Of a stretch of 64,000 nt of DNA, positions 21,304 to 27,535 are shown one piece after another. The first letter of the stretch is position 1, and each line of letters begins with the position of its first letter. Below the pieces are notes generated by a model, which saw only the letters and a program-made list of their open reading frames with translations, was not told the origin of the DNA and searched no databases. Origin of the DNA: a virus; the IMG/VR virus record IMGVR_UViG_3300043570_001741, positions 64,001 to 128,000 of that record; one strand, written 5' to 3'. Made by a program: the position numbers and the translations under genes.

Positions 21304-21628
21304 TGGTATCTTTTTCACCCCTGCAAATGATTACGATTTAGAGTTATCATTTTTTGATTTGAAAGAAAACCGCGGAACGCCAATTGATGGAAGTAAATAT
21401 GGTGACAAATACCATATTGCTTTCTTTAAAGGATTACCGGATGGTGAAGTGGTATTTGACGAATCATTTGAAGCTATCTTTGCCGACCCTGTGACTTATA
21501 TCAGAGGGCTGGTTGGGTGTGAATTGTTCGGATGCATTCTCAAAAAAACAACAACCTCAACAAAATGGTTCGAAGATTACCTCACAAGAACTAAAGAATC
21601 TGTTAAGCTACTTAATGAAAACTCTTAA
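21293..21628 (+). CDS. Hypothetical protein
   Basis: ORF overlapping the upstream stop. Confidence 0.55.
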   Translation: MEHDGIFFTPANDYDLELSFFDLKENRGTPIDGSKYGDKYHIAFFKGLPDGEVVFDESFEAIFADPVTYIRGLVGCELFGCILKKTTTSTKWFEDYLTRTKESVKLLNENS

Positions 21629-21639
21629 AGGAAACTGAA

Positions 21640-22155
21640 ATGCCTAATTGGTGTAGTAACTCTGTAAAAATTTCTGGCTCTAAAGAACAAATTGATGCCT
21701 TGGAACAATTCTTAAAAGAATCAAATGGTAAAGACTGGTTCGATTTCTTTCGACCTATTCCACCTGAATATAAAGAAGGTGAATTGTGGTATGGTTGGTC
21801 TATCAACAATTGGGGTTGCAAATGGAATTGTGATGCTCAAGATTGGTCAAGAGAAGATGTTGAGGATGAAGATGTATCAACGATTTCATTTTGGTTTGAT
21901 TCTCCTTGGGGTCCGCCAATTGCTTTATATGAAGCCGCTACTGAAGATGGTTATTATATTGAAGCATATTACCTTGAAGAAGGTATGGGCTTTGTAGGAA
22001 AGTTTGAAGATGGTTTTGATGATTATAATGAGTTTGATTTAGCAGACCCTGATTCTTTAGACCTCATTGATGATGATATTATTGAATTTTGGGATTTGAG
22101 AACACGCCTAGAAGATTGGCAAGATGAAAATCCACCGGAGGAAGATGATGAATAA
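21640..22155 (+). CDS. DUF1281/YubB ferredoxin-like fold protein
   Basis: MPNWCSN, NWGCKWN, FDSPWGPP. Confidence 0.7.
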   Translation: MPNWCSNSVKISGSKEQIDALEQFLKESNGKDWFDFFRPIPPEYKEGELWYGWSINNWGCKWNCDAQDWSREDVEDEDVSTISFWFDSPWGPPIALYEAATEDGYYIEAYYLEEGMGFVGKFEDGFDDYNEFDLADPDSLDLIDDDIIEFWDLRTRLEDWQDENPPEEDDE

Positions 22156-22357
22156 TACATTTTCTATTTTAATTGCAATTGTTGTAATTTTATTTCTCTT
22201 AATTGTTGCTCCTTTCTTAACAATTTGGTCTTTGAACACGCTTTTTCCTGTTTTGGAGATTCCGTACACATTTGAGACTTGGTCGGCAACAATTTTATTG
22301 ACAGCTGTGCTGCAATCTTCAAGCTTGAGTTTTAAAAATCGTAAATAAGGTGAAAAA

Positions 22358-22633
22358 ATGAGTGAAAAATTTGAATTTAAGACAAAAAAAGAGAAAAATT
22401 GGCTTTTGAGTGCTCTCCGTGAAAGTGAAGTGACTGTAAAATTCACAAAAAAAGACGGAAGTGAACGGACAATGATTTGTACTTTGAAAGAAGACAAAAT
22501 CCCGACTGAAAAATTGCCAAAAACTGCTGAAAAACAGAAAAATGAAGAAGTTGTTCCCGTTTTTGACCTTGAGAGTCAAGGTTGGCGTAGTTTTCGCTGG
22601 GACTCAATCAAAGAAATTCATTTTACAGTATAA
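22358..22633 (+). CDS. WYL_2/SH3-like beta-barrel protein
   Basis: VKFTKKDGSERTM.CTL, VFDLE..GWRSFR. Confidence 0.75.
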   Translation: MSEKFEFKTKKEKNWLLSALRESEVTVKFTKKDGSERTMICTLKEDKIPTEKLPKTAEKQKNEEVVPVFDLESQGWRSFRWDSIKEIHFTV

Positions 22634-22636
22634 ATA
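22629..22636 (+). promoter_or_regulatory. T4-type late promoter
   Basis: TATAAATA 10 nt upstream of tRNA. Confidence 0.65.
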
Positions 22637-22646
22637 GTAGCATTAC

Positions 22647-22721
22647 CGCAGGTAGGTCAAGTTGACCCGAATGGTCTCATAAGCCATATCGAGAGTGGAG
22701 CGTTACCACTACCTGCAACCA
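22647..22721 (+). tRNA. tRNA-fMet-like (CAT), atypical T-loop
   Basis: C1:A72 mismatch, CAT anticodon, ACCA end, T-loop AGCGTTA. Confidence 0.75.
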
Positions 22722-22741
22722 CATTTTTAGTATATTATAGC

Positions 22742-23191
22742 ATGTTACATTTAATAGAATCACTAACTGATAAATTTTTTGACTTGTTGAATCAAGATCC
22801 GGTACGCCCGAATATTCCACATGTGGACCGAATTGGTCCTAATAAAGATATTTTTGTTTTCCGTGATGCTGATGATAAAGTTAAAGCTATTACATGTGTG
22901 AGTTATCAACATTCAATTCCAACAAAGGAATCTGAATTATTTGAAAATACAGACACTCCTAACGTAGCCGTATTTTACACAATCTGGTCATATGTGCCAG
23001 GTGCTGGTCGTACATTGATTTTTGATGCGGTTCGCCACATTAAAGAGACAAGGCCGGAAATTACAAGATTTGTGACTTTAAGTCCAAAGACTGAAATGGC
23101 TAAACGTTTTCATACAAAGAATGGTGCAGGTGTTTATCGTGAAAACATCGAAACTGTTAATTATGAGTATGAAAAAGTGGAAAATACTTGA
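22742..23191 (+). CDS. GNAT-fold protein resembling malonyl-CoA decarboxylase catalytic core
   Basis: AVFYTI, FVTLSP, A..FH.KNGA. Confidence 0.5.
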   Translation: MLHLIESLTDKFFDLLNQDPVRPNIPHVDRIGPNKDIFVFRDADDKVKAITCVSYQHSIPTKESELFENTDTPNVAVFYTIWSYVPGAGRTLIFDAVRHIKETRPEITRFVTLSPKTEMAKRFHTKNGAGVYRENIETVNYEYEKVENT

Positions 23192-23221
23192 CCTTTTTAC
23201 TTGTAATACTAAAGTTTACGC

Positions 23222-23250
23222 TTGACAAATACTAAATAATAGACTATAAT
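23222..23250 (+). promoter_or_regulatory. Consensus sigma70 promoter of tRNA array (P1)
   Basis: TTGACA-17-TATAAT. Confidence 0.9.
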
Positions 23251-23256
23251 ACACAA

Positions 23257-23385
23257 ATGATGCAAAATTTAAGACTCTCACCGATAACGCTAAGTGCTAT
23301 GTCACCGACATGGCAGGCCAACTATCGTTGTGAGAATCATGGCTTTATTGGAACATCAAAGGATCCAGCAGAGGTTTGTGTTTAG
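23257..23385 (+). CDS. Putative leaderless attenuator leader peptide (42 aa, all 20 amino acids)
   Basis: MMQNLRLSPITLSAMSPTWQANYRCENHGFIGTSKDPAEVCV; ATG at predicted +1; 3' end complementary to terminator arm. Confidence 0.7.
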   Translation: MMQNLRLSPITLSAMSPTWQANYRCENHGFIGTSKDPAEVCV

Positions 23386-23422
23386 AATAAATTAGTAAAA
23401 TAGTTTTTTAATCACAAACCTC
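23371..23422 (+). promoter_or_regulatory. Antiterminator pairing
   Basis: GAGGTTTGTG (23371-23380) perfectly complementary to CACAAACCTC (23413-23422). Confidence 0.75.
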
Positions 23423-23452
23423 AGACCTAAAAAATCTGAGGTTTTTTGTTTT
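23416..23452 (+). terminator. Intrinsic terminator (attenuator) upstream of first array tRNA
   Basis: AAACCTCAGA-9nt-TCTGAGGTTT followed by TTTGTTTT. Confidence 0.85.
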
Positions 23453-23469
23453 GGGCATCGTCCCTTTTA

Positions 23470-23495
23470 GTTCTTTAAAAATTTGTAGAGTTAAT
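23470..23495 (+). promoter_or_regulatory. boxA-like element plus pairing arm (copy 1)
   Basis: GTTCTTTAAAAA then TTTGTAGAGTTAAT; complement at 26100-26118. Confidence 0.6.
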
Positions 23496-23499
23496 ATAT

Positions 23500-23573
23500 T
23501 CCCGAATGGTGTAGTGGTAGCACAGCAGACTTTGACTCTGTTAGTATAAGTTCGATTCTTATTTCGGGTGCCA
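23500..23573 (+). tRNA. tRNA-Gln(TTG)
   Basis: Cloverleaf, loop CTTTGAC, CCA. Confidence 0.9.
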
Positions 23574-23606
23574 TATAAAAACATATTGTGAAGTGTGTTT
23601 CTATAT

Positions 23607-23694
23607 GGAAGTGTGGTCGAGTGGTCTATGGCTCTAGTCTTGAAAACTAGCGATTCGAAAGGATCCGTGAGTTCGAATCTCACCGCTTCCGCCA
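23607..23694 (+). tRNA. tRNA-Ser(TGA)
   Basis: Loop CTTGAAA, long variable arm, GCCA. Confidence 0.93.
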
Positions 23695-23698
23695 AATT

Positions 23699-23787
23699 GG
23701 AGAGTGGGCAGGATGGTAATGCAGCAGATTGCTAATCTGTCATCGGATTAAACCGGTGAGTGGGTTCGATTCCCACACTCTCCGCCA
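23699..23787 (+). tRNA. tRNA-Ser(GCT)
   Basis: Loop TTGCTAA, long variable arm, GCCA. Confidence 0.92.
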
Positions 23788-23788
23788 T

Positions 23789-23864
23789 GTAGGTGTGACC
23801 TGAAAGGCTAGGGAGCGGATTGCAAATCCGTATAATGCAGGTTCGAGTCCTGTCACCTACTCCA
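23789..23864 (+). tRNA. tRNA-Cys(GCA)
   Basis: Loop TTGCAAA, TCCA end. Confidence 0.9.
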
Positions 23865-23881
23865 TTTGAAAACAAAAGTAT

Positions 23882-23942
23882 TGTTGTATAAAAACAACGA
23901 TGCTAAAATAGTTGTTGACTAAATGTGTGGTTCATGTATAAT
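23882..23942 (+). promoter_or_regulatory. Internal tRNA-array promoter (P2) with palindrome
   Basis: TGTTG-N8-CAACG 23882, TTGACT 23915, TATAAT 23937. Confidence 0.8.
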
Positions 23943-23949
23943 ACACACA

Positions 23950-23978
23950 TGTTATTTAAAAAGTTGTAGAGTTAATTT
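23950..23978 (+). promoter_or_regulatory. boxA-like element plus pairing arm (copy 2)
   Basis: TGTTATTTAAAAAGTTGTAGAGTTAATTT. Confidence 0.55.
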
Positions 23979-23980
23979 TT

Positions 23981-24055
23981 GCTCCGTTCGTCTATCGGTT
24001 AGGACGCTGCCCTTTCAAGGCGGAAAGACCAGTTCGATTCTGGTACGGAGTACCA
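23981..24055 (+). tRNA. tRNA-Glu(TTC)
   Basis: Loop CTTTCAA, CCA. Confidence 0.92.
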
Positions 24056-24176
24056 TTTGTTTTGCTGACGTAAGCGCCTGAGTAAACGTCAACTCTAACT
24101 AACTATGTACATAAACGGTAATGCTGCAGCTAATTCCGTTGAGCATAGCAAATAGTGCGTCAGCAAAACAAATGGT
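24052..24176 (+). ncRNA. Unknown structured RNA closed by a perfect 19-bp stem
   Basis: ACCATTTGTTTTGCTGACG / CGTCAGCAAAACAAATGGT with nested internal stems. Confidence 0.6.
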
Positions 24177-24181
24177 TGTTT

Positions 24182-24256
24182 GGAGGCATAACTTAACGGC
24201 TAAAGTAACTGGCTTTTAACCAGTAAATCAGAGTTCGATTCTCTGTGCCTCTACCA
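24182..24256 (+). tRNA. tRNA-Lys(TTT)
   Basis: Loop CTTTTAA, CCA. Confidence 0.9.
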
Positions 24257-24265
24257 GTAGAATTT

Positions 24266-24350
24266 GGAGATGCCGCCGTAATGGTATGGCAGGAGACTGT
24301 AAATCTTCCGACTTAGGTCACAATAGGTTCGATCCCTATCATCTCCACCA
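24266..24350 (+). tRNA. tRNA-Tyr(GTA)
   Basis: Loop CTGTAAA, variable arm, ACCA. Confidence 0.9.
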
Positions 24351-24354
24351 AATT

Positions 24355-24429
24355 GGTTTCAAAGTGTTCACGGACGCACGCTAGCTTGTCACGCTAGAAG
24401 AAGGGGATCGTTACCCCTTGAGACCGCCA
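24355..24429 (+). tRNA. tRNA-Asp(GTC)
   Basis: Loop TTGTCAC, GCCA, T-loop ATCGTTA. Confidence 0.87.
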
Positions 24430-24438
24430 AGTTTTTAT

Positions 24439-24513
24439 TCCACAGTAGCACAGCGGTAGTGCAGTTGACTGTTAATCAATTGGTCGTAGGTTCGATCCCT
24501 GCCTGTGGAGCCA
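24439..24513 (+). tRNA. tRNA-Asn(GTT)
   Basis: Loop CTGTTAA, GCCA. Confidence 0.93.
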
Positions 24514-24518
24514 ATATC

Positions 24519-24595
24519 GGGGACGTGATGGAATTGGTATACGTGTTGGTCTTAGAAGCCAAATTTTGTGAGTTCGAGTCTCACCGTCCCCACCA
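24519..24595 (+). tRNA. tRNA-Leu(TAG), short variable loop
   Basis: Loop CTTAGAA, ACCA. Confidence 0.88.
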
Positions 24596-24599
24596 ATTT

Positions 24600-24673
24600 G
24601 CCCTTTTAGTATAATGGTATTACGCCTGTTTTGTAATCAGGTTACGGCAGTTCGATTCTGTCAAGGGGCACCA
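24600..24673 (+). tRNA. tRNA-Thr(TGT)
   Basis: Loop TTTGTAA, ACCA. Confidence 0.9.
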
Positions 24674-24678
24674 ATTTT

Positions 24679-24752
24679 CTCGGTATAGTTTAATGGTAGA
24701 ATTCGTGGTTTGGGACCATGTGATGGAAGTTCGATTCTTCCTACCGAGACCA
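24679..24752 (+). tRNA. tRNA-Pro(TGG)
   Basis: Loop TTTGGGA, ACCA. Confidence 0.9.
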
Positions 24753-24757
24753 GTTAT

Positions 24758-24831
24758 GGGGAATTAGTATAATGGGATTACGGCAGCTTTGCAAGTTGTT
24801 TATGGGAGTTCGATTCTCCCATTCTCCACCA
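24758..24831 (+). tRNA. tRNA-Ala(TGC)
   Basis: Loop TTTGCAA, G3:U70, ACCA. Confidence 0.9.
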
Positions 24832-24835
24832 TTCA

Positions 24836-24910
24836 GGTTCAGTAGCACAGCGGTAGTGCAATTGCTTCATACGCAATAGGTCGTTGGCTCGAATCCAACC
24901 TGAACCACCA
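24836..24910 (+). tRNA. tRNA-Met(CAT), elongator-like
   Basis: Loop TTCATAC, ACCA. Confidence 0.85.
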
Positions 24911-24916
24911 AGTTAC

Positions 24917-24991
24917 GGGCGATTAGTAAAATGAATATTACACAAGGCTACGAACCTTGAAGTGGGAGTTTGATTCTCTCATCGCCCTCCA
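24917..24991 (+). tRNA. tRNA-Arg(ACG)
   Basis: Loop CTACGAA, CCA. Confidence 0.87.
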
Positions 24992-24994
24992 GAA

Positions 24995-25192
24995 CCAGCT
25001 AAGGTAACGCTTGGCTACTGTGACACGCAGGAAGTGAAGTGAGTTCGTTACTCAAGTGTGGTACTACTCTTACCGAAGTAGCGTTGGCAATACGAGAATT
25101 CTTTTTGGTCGGGAAGCGGGTGGAAGGTACATGGGAGAGGTATGATAGCGTCATATCTTTTCGTACTATAATTACCGCCGCAGAAAGAAAGC
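24995..25192 (+). ncRNA. Unknown multi-hairpin RNA within tRNA array
   Basis: Four short hairpins then a long interrupted stem; GC-richer than other spacers. Confidence 0.55.
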
Positions 25193-25195
25193 AAT

Positions 25196-25270
25196 GCCGT
25201 TGTAGCTCAGAGGAAGAGCATTCGCTTGATAAGCGAAAGGCCGACATTTCGAAATTGTCCAACGGTACCA
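25196..25270 (+). tRNA. tRNA-Ile(GAT)
   Basis: Loop TTGATAA, ACCA. Confidence 0.88.
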
Positions 25271-25275
25271 ATTTT

Positions 25276-25349
25276 ATCTCGCTGGTGTAATGGCAGCACG
25301 ATGGTCTCCAAAACCATTAGTCGGGGTTCGAGTCCCTGGCGGAATGCCA
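25276..25349 (+). tRNA. tRNA-Trp(CCA)
   Basis: Loop CTCCAAA, GCCA, one acceptor mismatch. Confidence 0.85.
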
Positions 25350-25368
25350 AGTTTTAAAGGTTGTCAAT

Positions 25369-25857
25369 ATGAAAAAATTCGATATAGAAGAAGTCAAACA
25401 GTTCCTTGCAAAACAAGGACCAAACACCAAAGTATATCTTGGTGCTGATTCAGAAAGAATCAGAGTGAATGAAGTTTGGTATGCTGACTACGCTTTAGCT
25501 GTTGTAGTTCATATTGATGGTTGTCATGGTTGTAAGATTTTTGGTTTTGTTGACCGTGAATTAGATTACGACCATAAAAAAAGTAAACCTGCTATGCGTC
25601 TAATGACAGAGGTGTACAAGGTTTCAGAATTGTTCCAATCACTACAGGATGTGTTGGAAGATTATCATGTTGAAGTCCATTTGGACTTAAATAAATCAGA
25701 TGAGTTCGGTAGTTCTTGTGTTGTTCAGCAAGCAATTGGTTATATCAAAGGTACATGTAACATGACACCAATGGTTAAACCTGATGCACCTGCGGCTTCA
25801 TTCTGTGCAGACCGTTTAAAACGGATTCTAGCAGAACAAGAATTGTCAACTATATAA
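25369..25857 (+). CDS. RNase H-like YkuK/DUF458 family protein inside tRNA array
   Basis: YLGADS, RLMTEV, EVHLDLN, KPDAPAASFCADR. Confidence 0.8.
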   Translation: MKKFDIEEVKQFLAKQGPNTKVYLGADSERIRVNEVWYADYALAVVVHIDGCHGCKIFGFVDRELDYDHKKSKPAMRLMTEVYKVSELFQSLQDVLEDYHVEVHLDLNKSDEFGSSCVVQQAIGYIKGTCNMTPMVKPDAPAASFCADRLKRILAEQELSTI

Positions 25858-25863
25858 AAATAT

Positions 25864-25937
25864 GCGGGATTAGTTTAGGGGCAAAACAGCAGATTTCCAA
25901 TCTTCGGTCATCGGTTCGATTCCGATATCCCGCTCCA
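25864..25937 (+). tRNA. tRNA-Gly(TCC)
   Basis: Loop TTTCCAA, TCCA. Confidence 0.9.
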
Positions 25938-25943
25938 GTCAAT

Positions 25944-26019
25944 GCAGTTGTTAGTGTAAAGGTTAACACCACGGATTGTGATTCCGTTAATATGGGTTCG
26001 ATTCCCATACTTCTGCCCA
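25944..26019 (+). tRNA. tRNA-His(GTG)
   Basis: Loop TTGTGAT, G-1:C73, CCA. Confidence 0.85.
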
Positions 26020-26023
26020 ATTC

Positions 26024-26098
26024 ACATCGTTAGCTCAGCGGTAGAGCAGGGCCCTTACAAGGCCAAGGTCAAAAGTTCAATCCTTTTACGATGTACCA
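26024..26098 (+). tRNA. tRNA-Val(TAC)
   Basis: Loop CTTACAA, ACCA. Confidence 0.88.
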
Positions 26099-26118
26099 AA
26101 TTAACTCTACAAATTTTT
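26098..26118 (+). repeat. Reverse complement of the two leader arms (long-range pairing)
   Basis: AAATTAACTCTACAAATTTTT; 19/19 complementary to 23477-23495, 20/21 to 23958-23978. Confidence 0.8.
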
Positions 26119-26193
26119 CTGGCCTTAGTATAATGGATAATACAGTTGCCTTCTAAGCAATCAATACAGGTTCGATTCCTGTAGGCCGGGCCA
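26119..26193 (+). tRNA. tRNA-Arg(TCT)
   Basis: Loop CTTCTAA, GCCA. Confidence 0.9.
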
Positions 26194-26198
26194 ATTAC

Positions 26199-26274
26199 AC
26201 GCTTGTAGCTCAATGGTTAGAGCAGGAAACTCATAATTTCTTGGTTGGGGGTTCGAGTCCCTTCGAGCGTACCA
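26199..26274 (+). tRNA. tRNA-Ile2(CAT) or Met
   Basis: Loop CTCATAA, ACCA; third CAT tRNA in window. Confidence 0.82.
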
Positions 26275-26284
26275 TATATAATTA

Positions 26285-27031
26285 ATGTCCGTGAAAAATC
26301 TAATCTTTTCATTTCTACTGTTAACAACAAATGCCTTTGGTGTGAGTTTAACTGCTCACACTTGGTTAGTTGCGGATGGTGACGGTAGAATCATACAAAG
26401 TGAAAATGGCCAAGAACTAAGGTCGATTGCCAGTATCACTAAACTTATGACTGCAATGGTCATAATAGATGCTGGTCAGAATCCAAAAGAGAAACTCGGA
26501 AATTTAACAAGAGAGCAACATATTCAAATGGCTCTTGTTATGTCAAGCAATGAATCTGCTATTACTTTATGTGATAATTATCCAGGTGGTAAATCAAGTT
26601 GTATTAGGGATATGAATTCTAAAGCTGTTGCTATGAATATGCCTAACACCAAATTTGTTGAAGCATCTGGACTAAGTCCGATGAATATCAGTACAGGAAA
26701 AGATTTGATTGAATTGGTGCTTGCTGCAAGTTATTATCCCGATATCATTCAGGCTAGTAAAACTGCTCAAGTGAAGATTCAAGTTAAAAAGAAGTGGTTC
26801 TTTTTCAACAATACGAATCCAATTATTGGTAAACGCCACGATTTCATAGTAAGTAAAACAGGATGGACAAATGCGGCCGGTGGTTGTATCGTAATGTTAT
26901 TGGATACTGATATTGGCCGCAGGCTTGTTGTGGTACTCGGTTCTAAGAATACTAGAACACGAATACCAGAAGCTGAGTTTATTGCTTTACAGAATAATTG
27001 GCAACCACAACCAAATACCTTGGCTCATTAA
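26285..27031 (+). CDS. Peptidase S11 D-Ala-D-Ala carboxy/endopeptidase (PBP7-like)
   Basis: Signal peptide, SITK, SSN, KTG motifs. Confidence 0.88.
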   Translation: MSVKNLIFSFLLLTTNAFGVSLTAHTWLVADGDGRIIQSENGQELRSIASITKLMTAMVIIDAGQNPKEKLGNLTREQHIQMALVMSSNESAITLCDNYPGGKSSCIRDMNSKAVAMNMPNTKFVEASGLSPMNISTGKDLIELVLAASYYPDIIQASKTAQVKIQVKKKWFFFNNTNPIIGKRHDFIVSKTGWTNAAGGCIVMLLDTDIGRRLVVVLGSKNTRTRIPEAEFIALQNNWQPQPNTLAH

Positions 27032-27535
27032 CAAAGCAGATAAAGCACCAACTACTATACTTGCCAAATACAATGCAGGTGCTACAGCTAAGATACTAGC
27101 TGATAATAGAACAATTGAAATCTGAAAACCTGATCCTGCAAATGTCATCCAAGGACCAGATTTGCGAATTTCATCACGTTCAGCTTCAAGTGCCTTTGCT
27201 TTAGCAAATAGTTCTTTTTTGCCTTCACCCGTTGCAGGTTCAGATTCATATCTATTGATTTTTGCAGTTAACTTATCTGCCTTCTCAAATTGTTTTCTGT
27301 CAATAGCATCATCTCTAGCCATTTCAGCAAGAGTCTGTTTAATTGATTTTGCCTGAAAGAATGCCCAAGTGTCATTAGCCTTAATTGTATTGTTCAGTAC
27401 CTTAGAACTATTGCCACTAGCAATATAAGTATTAATGGCCAACAAAGCAGCCAAAACGGTAATAAGCCATCCCGCTTTGTCTTTGATTTGTGCTTCTCTT
27501 TCGCTTCTACTAAGTGGTTTTTTTTCTTCCGCCAT
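26987..27535 (-). CDS. DUF4337-like membrane protein
   Basis: AALLAI, DTWAFFQAKSIKQ, QISIVLLSAS. Confidence 0.7.
   Translation of the reverse strand: MAEEKKPLSRSEREAQIKDKAGWLITVLAALLAINTYIASGNSSKVLNNTIKANDTWAFFQAKSIKQTLAEMARDDAIDRKQFEKADKLTAKINRYESEPATGEGKKELFAKAKALEAERDEIRKSGPWMTFAGSGFQISIVLLSASILAVAPALYLASIVVGALSALLMSQGIWLWLPIIL

Follow-up and report, generated by a model that had tools for sequence, protein, structure and literature searches.

A tRNA array of an uncultured T4-type phage, probably organized in the manner of an rRNA operon, with boxA-like leaders and a covarying leader–trailer helix

The transfer RNA (tRNA) array of an uncultured T4-type myovirus is, on balance, probably a transcription unit in the style of a ribosomal RNA (rRNA) operon (rrn), in which a boxA leader (GUUCUUUAAAAA) runs into a leader–trailer helix that closes the tRNA block. 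The window analysed here is a stretch of 64,000 nt, positions 64001–128000 of the 157,713 nt IMG/VR virus record IMGVR_UViG_3300043570_001741, which is estimated to be 95 % complete; a gp6-like baseplate wedge protein, a gp5-like lysozyme and ribonucleotide reductase are among the products of this virus. Of the 23 tRNA genes in the window, all on the + strand, 22 form a single array at 23500–26274 (ARAGORN). Two leaders of this array each carry a boxA-like 12-mer followed by one strand of the helix, and a trailer near the array end supplies the other strand.

Results

Three complementary elements in the tRNA array

An earlier note on this DNA had described a shared element in the array at two places and its reverse complement in a spacer near the array end, and the sequence bears out all three. 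Element 1 (GTTCTTTAAAAATTTGTAGAGTTAAT) is located at 23470–23495, element 2 (TGTTATTTAAAAAGTTGTAGAGTTAATTT) at 23950–23978 and the trailer (AAATTAACTCTACAAATTTTT) at 26098–26118. In an inverted-repeat search, 23477–23495 is 100 % complementary to 26100–26118 over 19 nt (19/19), and 23958–23978 is 95 % complementary to 26098–26118 over 21 nt (20/21). The window has exactly three copies of the 13 nt core TTGTAGAGTTAAT, two forward and one reversed, and the whole 157,713 nt record has no more. Leader and trailer are 2.1–2.6 kb apart. Arm 1 ends 4 nt before tRNA-Gln (23500) and arm 2 ends 2 nt before tRNA-Glu (23981), while the trailer is flanked by the end of tRNA-Val (26098) and the start of tRNA-Arg (26119).

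The pairing is retained in global folds of the predicted transcripts. The minimum free energy (MFE) structure of the 2678 nt predicted precursor keeps helix copy 1 at 19/19, and that of the 2182 nt predicted RNA from the internal promoter P2 keeps copy 2, with 20/21 positions paired with the trailer; the leaders alone have no significant local structure (z = −0.4 and +0.5). Because another perfect 18-mer inverted pair, unrelated to these elements, is also present in the 64 kb window, the inverted pair in the window alone is only suggestive, and it is the relatives that lift it above chance.

The claim that both array promoters are followed by the element holds directly for P2, which immediately precedes element 2. 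The first promoter, P1, is instead separated from element 1 by a 41-codon open reading frame (ORF) and a hairpin. This insert (23257–23452) is limited to the lineage of the window and two related loci, L005 and L006, which are the only loci with the same upstream context; in most relatives both leaders come directly after their promoters. A palindrome, TGTTG-N8-CAACA (ttgttgtataaaaacaacg), is located at 23888–23908, just upstream of the P2 −35 hexamer.

Conservation and covariation of the leader–trailer helix

Relatives were found with the RNase H-like ORF of the array as an anchor, which gave 80 related IMG/VR loci out of 174 matches. Together with the window, 81 sequences were compared, and 52 loci (51 related loci and the window) have a boxA leader. 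The arrays of the relatives have a common architecture of 20–30 tRNA genes, in which tRNA-Gln(ttg) leads and an internal promoter precedes tRNA-Glu(ttc). Their leaders consist, in order, of a sigma70 promoter, the near-invariant 12-mer, a variable part of 12–20 nt and then tRNA-Gln or tRNA-Glu.

The variable part has at least eight different sequences among the lineages, each with its own matching trailer. Helix types 1–4 are TTTGTAGAGTTAAT, TTTGTTGTAGTTA, TTTGTCGTAGTT and GTTAAGTGTAATTT, and types 5–8 are TTAGATTGTATTT, TTTGCATTGCTTT, TTAGATGTAACTTGT and TTTATAGAGTTATT. A trailer could be assigned to 46 of the 52 boxA-bearing loci, on the same strand and 2.1–7.3 kb away, with best downstream reverse-complement scores of 12–23; as a control, further same-orientation copies score at background (median 9.5). 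The six loci with a boxA leader and no trailer have 5.2 kb or less of sequence downstream of the leader.

Covariation was assessed in 54 unique leader/trailer rows from the 46 loci, with columns counted from the start of boxA. Columns 15–22 are Watson–Crick paired in every row (54/54), and each column shows two to four pair types. Pairing is 97 % over the variable part, as against a mean of 62 % (maximum 72 %) with the trailers shuffled among rows; with the helix register chosen by complementarity and the rows related, these figures describe co-variation and are not a calibrated probability. Positions inside the helix that are not Watson–Crick comprise seven distinct G.U events, no A.C and two transversions. 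One of the G.U positions is confounded, as it falls on the G of a −35 TTGAC; the others are not. In two relatives (L072 and L075) the two leaders differ by C/U, and the single trailer has a G that pairs with both.

A repeat maintained at the DNA level, whether as an operator or by concerted evolution, would give both kinds of transition mismatch, so the count of seven G.U against no A.C points to RNA pairing. These comparisons of sequence lead us to conclude that selection on the complementarity acts on the RNA, and the RNA helix is very likely to be functional. The complement that the earlier note had proposed is thus conserved and covarying, with at least eight helix types, matching trailers and internal mismatches that are mostly G.U.

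A prospective test was made with the leader type of a short locus (L158), which was searched for in its 156.7 kb parent record (G064). In reverse complement, the variable part of this leader has a single further perfect match in that record, 5.4 kb farther down the same strand, and this match sits between tRNA-Leu(caa) and tRNA-Gly(gcc).

Extent of the helix and position of the trailer

The helix is 11–23 bp long, with a median of 16 contiguous pairs, and 19–21 bp in the window. It starts within the A-run of boxA, and its arms stop at the tRNA ends. Duplex boundaries shift among lineages: in L055 and L075 the duplex extends into boxA and complements its T5-to-A variant, and in L048 and L066 it extends the opposite way. 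Masking of boxA by the helix, which the earlier note had raised as a feedback device, is at most partial, in that the 3′ A-run (positions 8–12) is covered in most genomes and the GUUCUUU core is left free. Full masking as a general feature was rejected, as the helix rarely covers boxA positions 1–7.

The tRNA that precedes the trailer depends on the lineage (Val, Leu, Thr, Arg, Phe, Gly or Met), and the trailer is invariably close to where the main block ends. Some relatives, like the window, have it as a bare spacer between two tRNAs. Many have it within the −35/spacer region of a third perfect sigma70 promoter, P3 (e.g. TTGACT-ACAACAAATTTTTGTGT-TATAAT); in L068 and G064 it lies over the P3 −10, and in L084 just after the −10. 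Examples of the overlap of trailer and P3 are found at L015:7180–7215, L075:8495–8535 and L251:1468–1525. The short P3 units have no boxA and drive the last one to three tRNAs or the next mRNA. The window has lost the P3 promoter.

The conserved 12-mer as a probable boxA

The 12-mer GTTCTTTAAAAA stands unaltered in 54 of the 64 unique leaders and with a one-base change in the remaining ten, whereas the twelve positions upstream of it vary freely. Variants are tolerated at positions 4 and 5. It is located 8 nt, ~30 nt or, in window leader 1, ~220 nt from the −10 hexamer; in the leader of P2, boxA starts 9 nt after the −10. Because the distance from promoter to boxA varies, the 12-mer is not a promoter element. 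It lies in the transcribed leader downstream of the promoter, where it is predicted to be single-stranded (leader boxA in RNA form, GUUCUUUAAAAAUUU).

The published gamma-proteobacterial boxA consensus is GYTCTTTAANA (PMC5725501). Leader 1 (GTTCTTTAAAA) matches it exactly and leader 2 (GTTATTTAAAA) with one mismatch. The phage 12-mer is identical at 11/12 positions to the boxA of the Escherichia coli rrnB 16S–23S spacer, GCTCTTTAAAAA (TGCTCTTTAAAAAT). In the genome record of E. coli K-12, the rrnB leader boxA reads TGCTCTTTAACAA and is preceded by a hairpin with a GAGAAAAA loop; 3 nt after boxA comes ATCAGACAATCTGTGTG, the complement of which, CACACAGATTGTCTGAT, follows 16S. Among 61 genomes sampled from Burkholderiales (the GTDB order holding Parasutterella), 16S-upstream sequence was examined at 26 loci. 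The boxA of most of these is GCTCTTTAACA, located 110–240 nt before 16S, and in six of the 26 it is GTTCTTTAAAA. The phage motif is therefore equal to the rrn boxA of some Burkholderiales, an equality that does not identify the host.

Many Glu leaders of the relatives have a hairpin between the promoter and the 12-mer, with a TTGA/TCAA stem, a GAAA loop and the core TTGAGAAATCAA. A scan of ~186,000 species genomes for TTGAGAAATCAA-N(3–8)-GTTCTTTAA, i.e. hairpin plus boxA, gave 11 matches, nine of which look like chance occurrences inside other sequence. Two Parasutterella muris contig ends (L094:222–246 and L096) look like an rrn leader, with a promoter, GCTTGAGAAATCAAGC, AA and GTTCTTTAAAAATTTATCGACGACCGATAAG; the P. 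muris assembly has no 16S, and the identification as an rrn leader rests on similarity to the verified Burkholderiales leaders. These ends share the hairpin core and boxA (TTGAGAAATCAAGCAAGTTCTTTAAAAATTT; TTGAGAAATCAA-N-GTTCTTTAAAAATTT) with the Glu leaders of the phage's relatives. As far as sequence likeness goes, the Glu leaders of the relatives reproduce a bacterial module of boxB-like hairpin plus boxA almost letter for letter.

Neither a NusB gene nor an RNase III gene was found in the phage genome, so host factors would be needed. The boxA reading of the earlier note is supported by the consensus match, the 11/12 agreement with the E. coli spacer, the identity with Burkholderiales 16S-leader boxA elements and the near-invariance among leaders. 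The 12-mer is quite likely to be a working Nus site.

Other features of the array and its virus

Coordinates of the array features are collected in Table 1. A search of 21500–27500 against Rfam matched only tRNAs. Besides tRNA genes, the enclosed block holds two structured or abundant non-tRNA RNAs, at 24052–24176 and about 25005–25124, and the RNase H-like ORF at 25369–25857.

Table 1. Features of the tRNA array in the window (positions are those of the window)
Feature	Position	Strand	Description
Promoter P1	23222–23250	+	TTGACA-17-TATAAT, 12/12 consensus; homologues in relatives directly before boxA
Insert between P1 and leader 1	23257–23452	+	41-codon ORF and terminator-like hairpin (~23418–23450)
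boxA-like element 1, GTTCTTTAAAAA	23470–23481	+	First 11 bases, GTTCTTTAAAA, fit GYTCTTTAANA exactly
Helix 5′ strand, copy 1	23477–23495	+	19/19 with 26100–26118; RNAduplex −21.6 kcal/mol
Enclosed block	23500–26098	+	20 tRNA genes, Gln to Val (ARAGORN)
Internal promoter P2	23915–23942	+	TTGACT-16-TATAAT, 11/12 consensus; directly precedes element 2
boxA-like element 2, GTTATTTAAAAA	23951–23962	+	C4-to-A variant, common to L005 and L006
Helix 5′ strand, copy 2	23958–23978	+	20/21 with 26098–26118; RNAduplex −20.1 kcal/mol
Trailer, helix 3′ strand	26098–26118	+	Fills the whole 20 nt tRNA-Val/tRNA-Arg spacer
tRNA-Arg(tct) and tRNA-Met(cat)	26119–26274	+	Outside the helix (ARAGORN)

The element at 24052–24176 is 125 nt long, lies between tRNA-Glu and tRNA-Lys and forms a hairpin with a 21 bp perfect stem (−46 kcal/mol, z = −5.45) that starts inside the ACCA end of tRNA-Glu. 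A gap of 116–131 nt is retained at this position in most relatives examined. From its predicted fold, the hairpin looks like a good substrate for a double-strand nuclease or like a small RNA. The RNA at 25005–25124 is an abundant species of ~120 nt in a 204 nt gap between tRNA-Arg(acg) and tRNA-Ile; it is present as an adapter-flanked contig in one metatranscriptome and at a depth of ~4900 in another. It has no Rfam match, and its folding energy is not unusual. By analogy, it may be a counterpart of the T4 stable RNAs rnaC and rnaD.

The RNase H-like ORF (PF04308/DUF458, YkuK-type, phrog_11311) has been conserved within the array across more than 170 IMG/VR contigs, and in some isolate phage genomes the gene is labelled 'ribonuclease'. 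A role of its product in RNA processing is possible.

No near relative of the window was found in the isolate-phage collection searched. The nearest isolates, at ~40 % protein identity, are Methylophilales and Pelagibacter myophages. Near-identical DNA is found across many lake-water metagenomes.

Discussion

Evidence against the proposed organization

Several observations weigh against an rrn-style unit. The boxA-like element 2 of the window is altered by C4-to-A, and T5-to-A is found in the leaders of six relatives. A rough calculation puts the chance expectation for GYTCTTTAANA in the 157 kb genome at ~1.7 matches, against about three observed; within a single genome the motif by itself lacks significance, and it is on position and conservation that the argument rests. 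Its likeness to boxA was judged on E. coli and Burkholderiales and not on the host's own rrn boxA. The rows of the covariation set are phylogenetically related, so row counts overstate the number of independent events. The helix is AU-rich (−20 to −31 kcal/mol), shorter than the enterobacterial 25–40 bp and borderline for RNase III. The second leader differs in its variable part in L040 and in the lineage of L077, L079, L080 and L082, and a search for a trailer matching these variants (L079, L040) found none. Contigs of four metatranscriptomes over 23200–26300 come mostly from the tRNAs of related phages and are uninformative as to the ends or continuity of leader and trailer. Lastly, the overlap of the trailer with a sigma70 promoter in many relatives leaves room for a role at the DNA level.

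Alternative explanations

The long-range RNA helix could be real and GTTCTTTAAAAA nonetheless be something other than a Nus site: another RNA-binding protein or a nuclease might recognize it (RNase E at an entry site or a phage factor, for example), or it might just be a conserved single-stranded spacer. T4-type phages alter host RNA polymerase in ways of their own, and the tRNA-Gln leader of T4 itself fails the consensus. The shortness of GYTCTTTAANA, with its chance matches in an AT-rich genome, and the tolerance of boxA variants at positions 4 and 5 also speak for such a site. It is nevertheless judged unlikely, for the 12-mer is identical to genuine 16S-leader boxA elements, stays invariant while its flanks vary and is placed relative to the helix as in rrn operons; in the relatives it is also paired with the same upstream hairpin as in the rrn-leader-like bacterial sequence. 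Pairing could also take place in trans, with the excised 20 nt spacer or a released leader fragment acting as a small antisense RNA, for example in feedback on nascent leaders. The complementarity data fit cis and trans alike, and the trailer of the window is exactly an inter-tRNA spacer, of the kind that would be cut out by RNase P and 3′ processing. Such spacers do not normally last long once released, however, and in the relatives the trailer lies upstream of the P3 start, so that it is made only on read-through P1/P2 RNA, which is its cis partner. With the rrn precedent in cis as well (PMC10250234), pairing in trans is given little credence.

At the DNA level, the three elements could be operators for a lineage-specific regulator that would block P1 and P2 transcripts at +12 to +30 and repress P3, perhaps via DNA looping. 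The asymmetry of the sites, which have no dyad, argues against this, as does their constant orientation on the transcribed strand, with two copies forward and one reversed. The main argument for operators is that in many relatives the trailer falls within the −35/spacer of a perfect promoter (TTGACT-17-TATAAT) or covers its −10, and a site sequence that differs by lineage would also be familiar from immunity systems. Yet the position relative to P3 varies between −35/spacer, −10, downstream and, in the window, no promoter at all, and the duplex boundaries shift among lineages. The internal mismatches (seven G.U, no A.C) and the single trailer G that meets a C in one leader and a U in the second are also at odds with operators, which are accordingly regarded as improbable. 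A chance or neutral inverted duplication would find its precedent in the unrelated 18-mer pair of the window, and a pair of recombination sites could in principle invert the tRNA block. Conservation with covariation across at least eight sequence types makes either hardly credible, and the 1752 of 1752 tRNA genes that lie on one strand in the 81 sequences, with no inverted variant, argue against an invertible segment of the Hin/Gin type.

Comparison with known systems

In rrn operons the order of elements is boxB–boxA–boxC, and leader and trailer form a covarying helix, of 25–40 bp in Enterobacteriaceae, that RNase III cuts; in the model for these operons, the 5′ strand is kept close to the RNA exit by NusB-bound boxA up to the moment at which the trailer comes out (PMC10250234). 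As in E. coli rrnB, the phage unit runs from a promoter through an optional GAAA-loop hairpin and boxA to the 5′ strand of a helix, the partner of which comes after the mature RNA. The boxA sequence is essentially the same, and both helices covary with wobble pairs. Unlike rrn, the unit is located in a phage genome, and its helix encloses ~20 tRNAs and an ORF in place of rRNA. The phage helix is also shorter (16–23 bp versus 25–40 bp), its strand is hypervariable with no conserved boxC, and two alternative leaders share one trailer. In both units the 5′ strand of the helix begins right by boxA, 3 nt after it in rrnB and within its A-run in the phage.

The nut sites of phage lambda are likewise phage sites with a host NusB/NusE-type boxA in leader RNA. 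In contrast to lambda, the window shows no evident N-like protein or boxB, the relatives have the rrn order of hairpin then boxA, and the target is untranslated tRNA genes; nut sites have no long-range helix. Non-rRNA boxA elements, in the 5′ untranslated region of suhB and elsewhere, are located less than 50 nt from the start codon, where they repress translation and promote Rho termination (PMC5725501). The phage boxA shares with these the GYTCTTTAANA consensus in a non-rRNA leader but precedes tRNAs and a long-range helix.

The tRNA cluster of T4 also belongs to a T4-type phage, has tRNA-Gln first and includes small stable RNAs (rnaC and rnaD, at the cluster end). The T4 leader (GGTTCTTGTTAGAG...) departs from the boxA consensus, and to our knowledge no leader–trailer helix has been described for T4. 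The T4 tRNA-Gln leader GGTTCTTGTTAGAGAGCCTTTGTTAATAAT (L255:12531–12580, minus strand) is faintly like that of the window (GTTCTT...GTAGAG...GTTAATA) and may be a degenerate relative of it. Two tRNA-rich phages at a greater distance, Stenotrophomonas phage DLP6 and Synechococcus phage BUCT-ZZ01, share the RNase H-like gene, and no boxA was found before their tRNAs. Among the phages examined, with the motif absent from DLP6, BUCT-ZZ01 and T4, the design seems specific to this clade.

Proposed mechanism and significance

In an rrn-style unit, host NusB/NusE and other Nus factors would load on boxA, and the RNA polymerase so loaded would resist Rho termination along the long untranslated array. 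The Nus complex would tether the leader near the RNA exit, and the trailer would pair with it on emerging. The resulting helix of 16–23 bp would close the tRNA block into one domain and may also shield its ends. A cut in the helix by host RNase III would separate the block from the downstream RNA, after which RNase P and 3′ trimming enzymes would release the tRNAs; cleavage of this helix by RNase III is a real possibility, rated at somewhat less than even odds.

There is also a small chance that the tethered leader and the trailer act as a distance-independent 'end-of-array' switch, in which pairing would strip or remodel the anti-termination complex or form a split terminator. Such a terminator would use the U-run that follows the helix in most lineages, and anti-terminated transcription would stop exactly where P3 restarts normal transcription. 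A split intrinsic terminator as the principal explanation was set aside; the stems are AU-rich, and several lineages have no U-run after the helix.

A search of the literature on boxA, anti-termination or leader–trailer pairing in connection with phage tRNA found no published account of such a design. If the proposed organization is true, this would be the first case found in which a phage reproduces the full rrn leader logic for tRNA genes, boxA together with a leader–trailer helix. With its hypervariable helix, 2–7 kb loop and non-rRNA cargo, the array would be a natural test of the 'tethered leader' chaperone model, and a leader of ~30 nt with a trailer of ~20 nt would make a compact, portable module suited to reporters. 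For large phages, the arrangement suggests how long untranslated tRNA arrays may be carried past Rho and processed.

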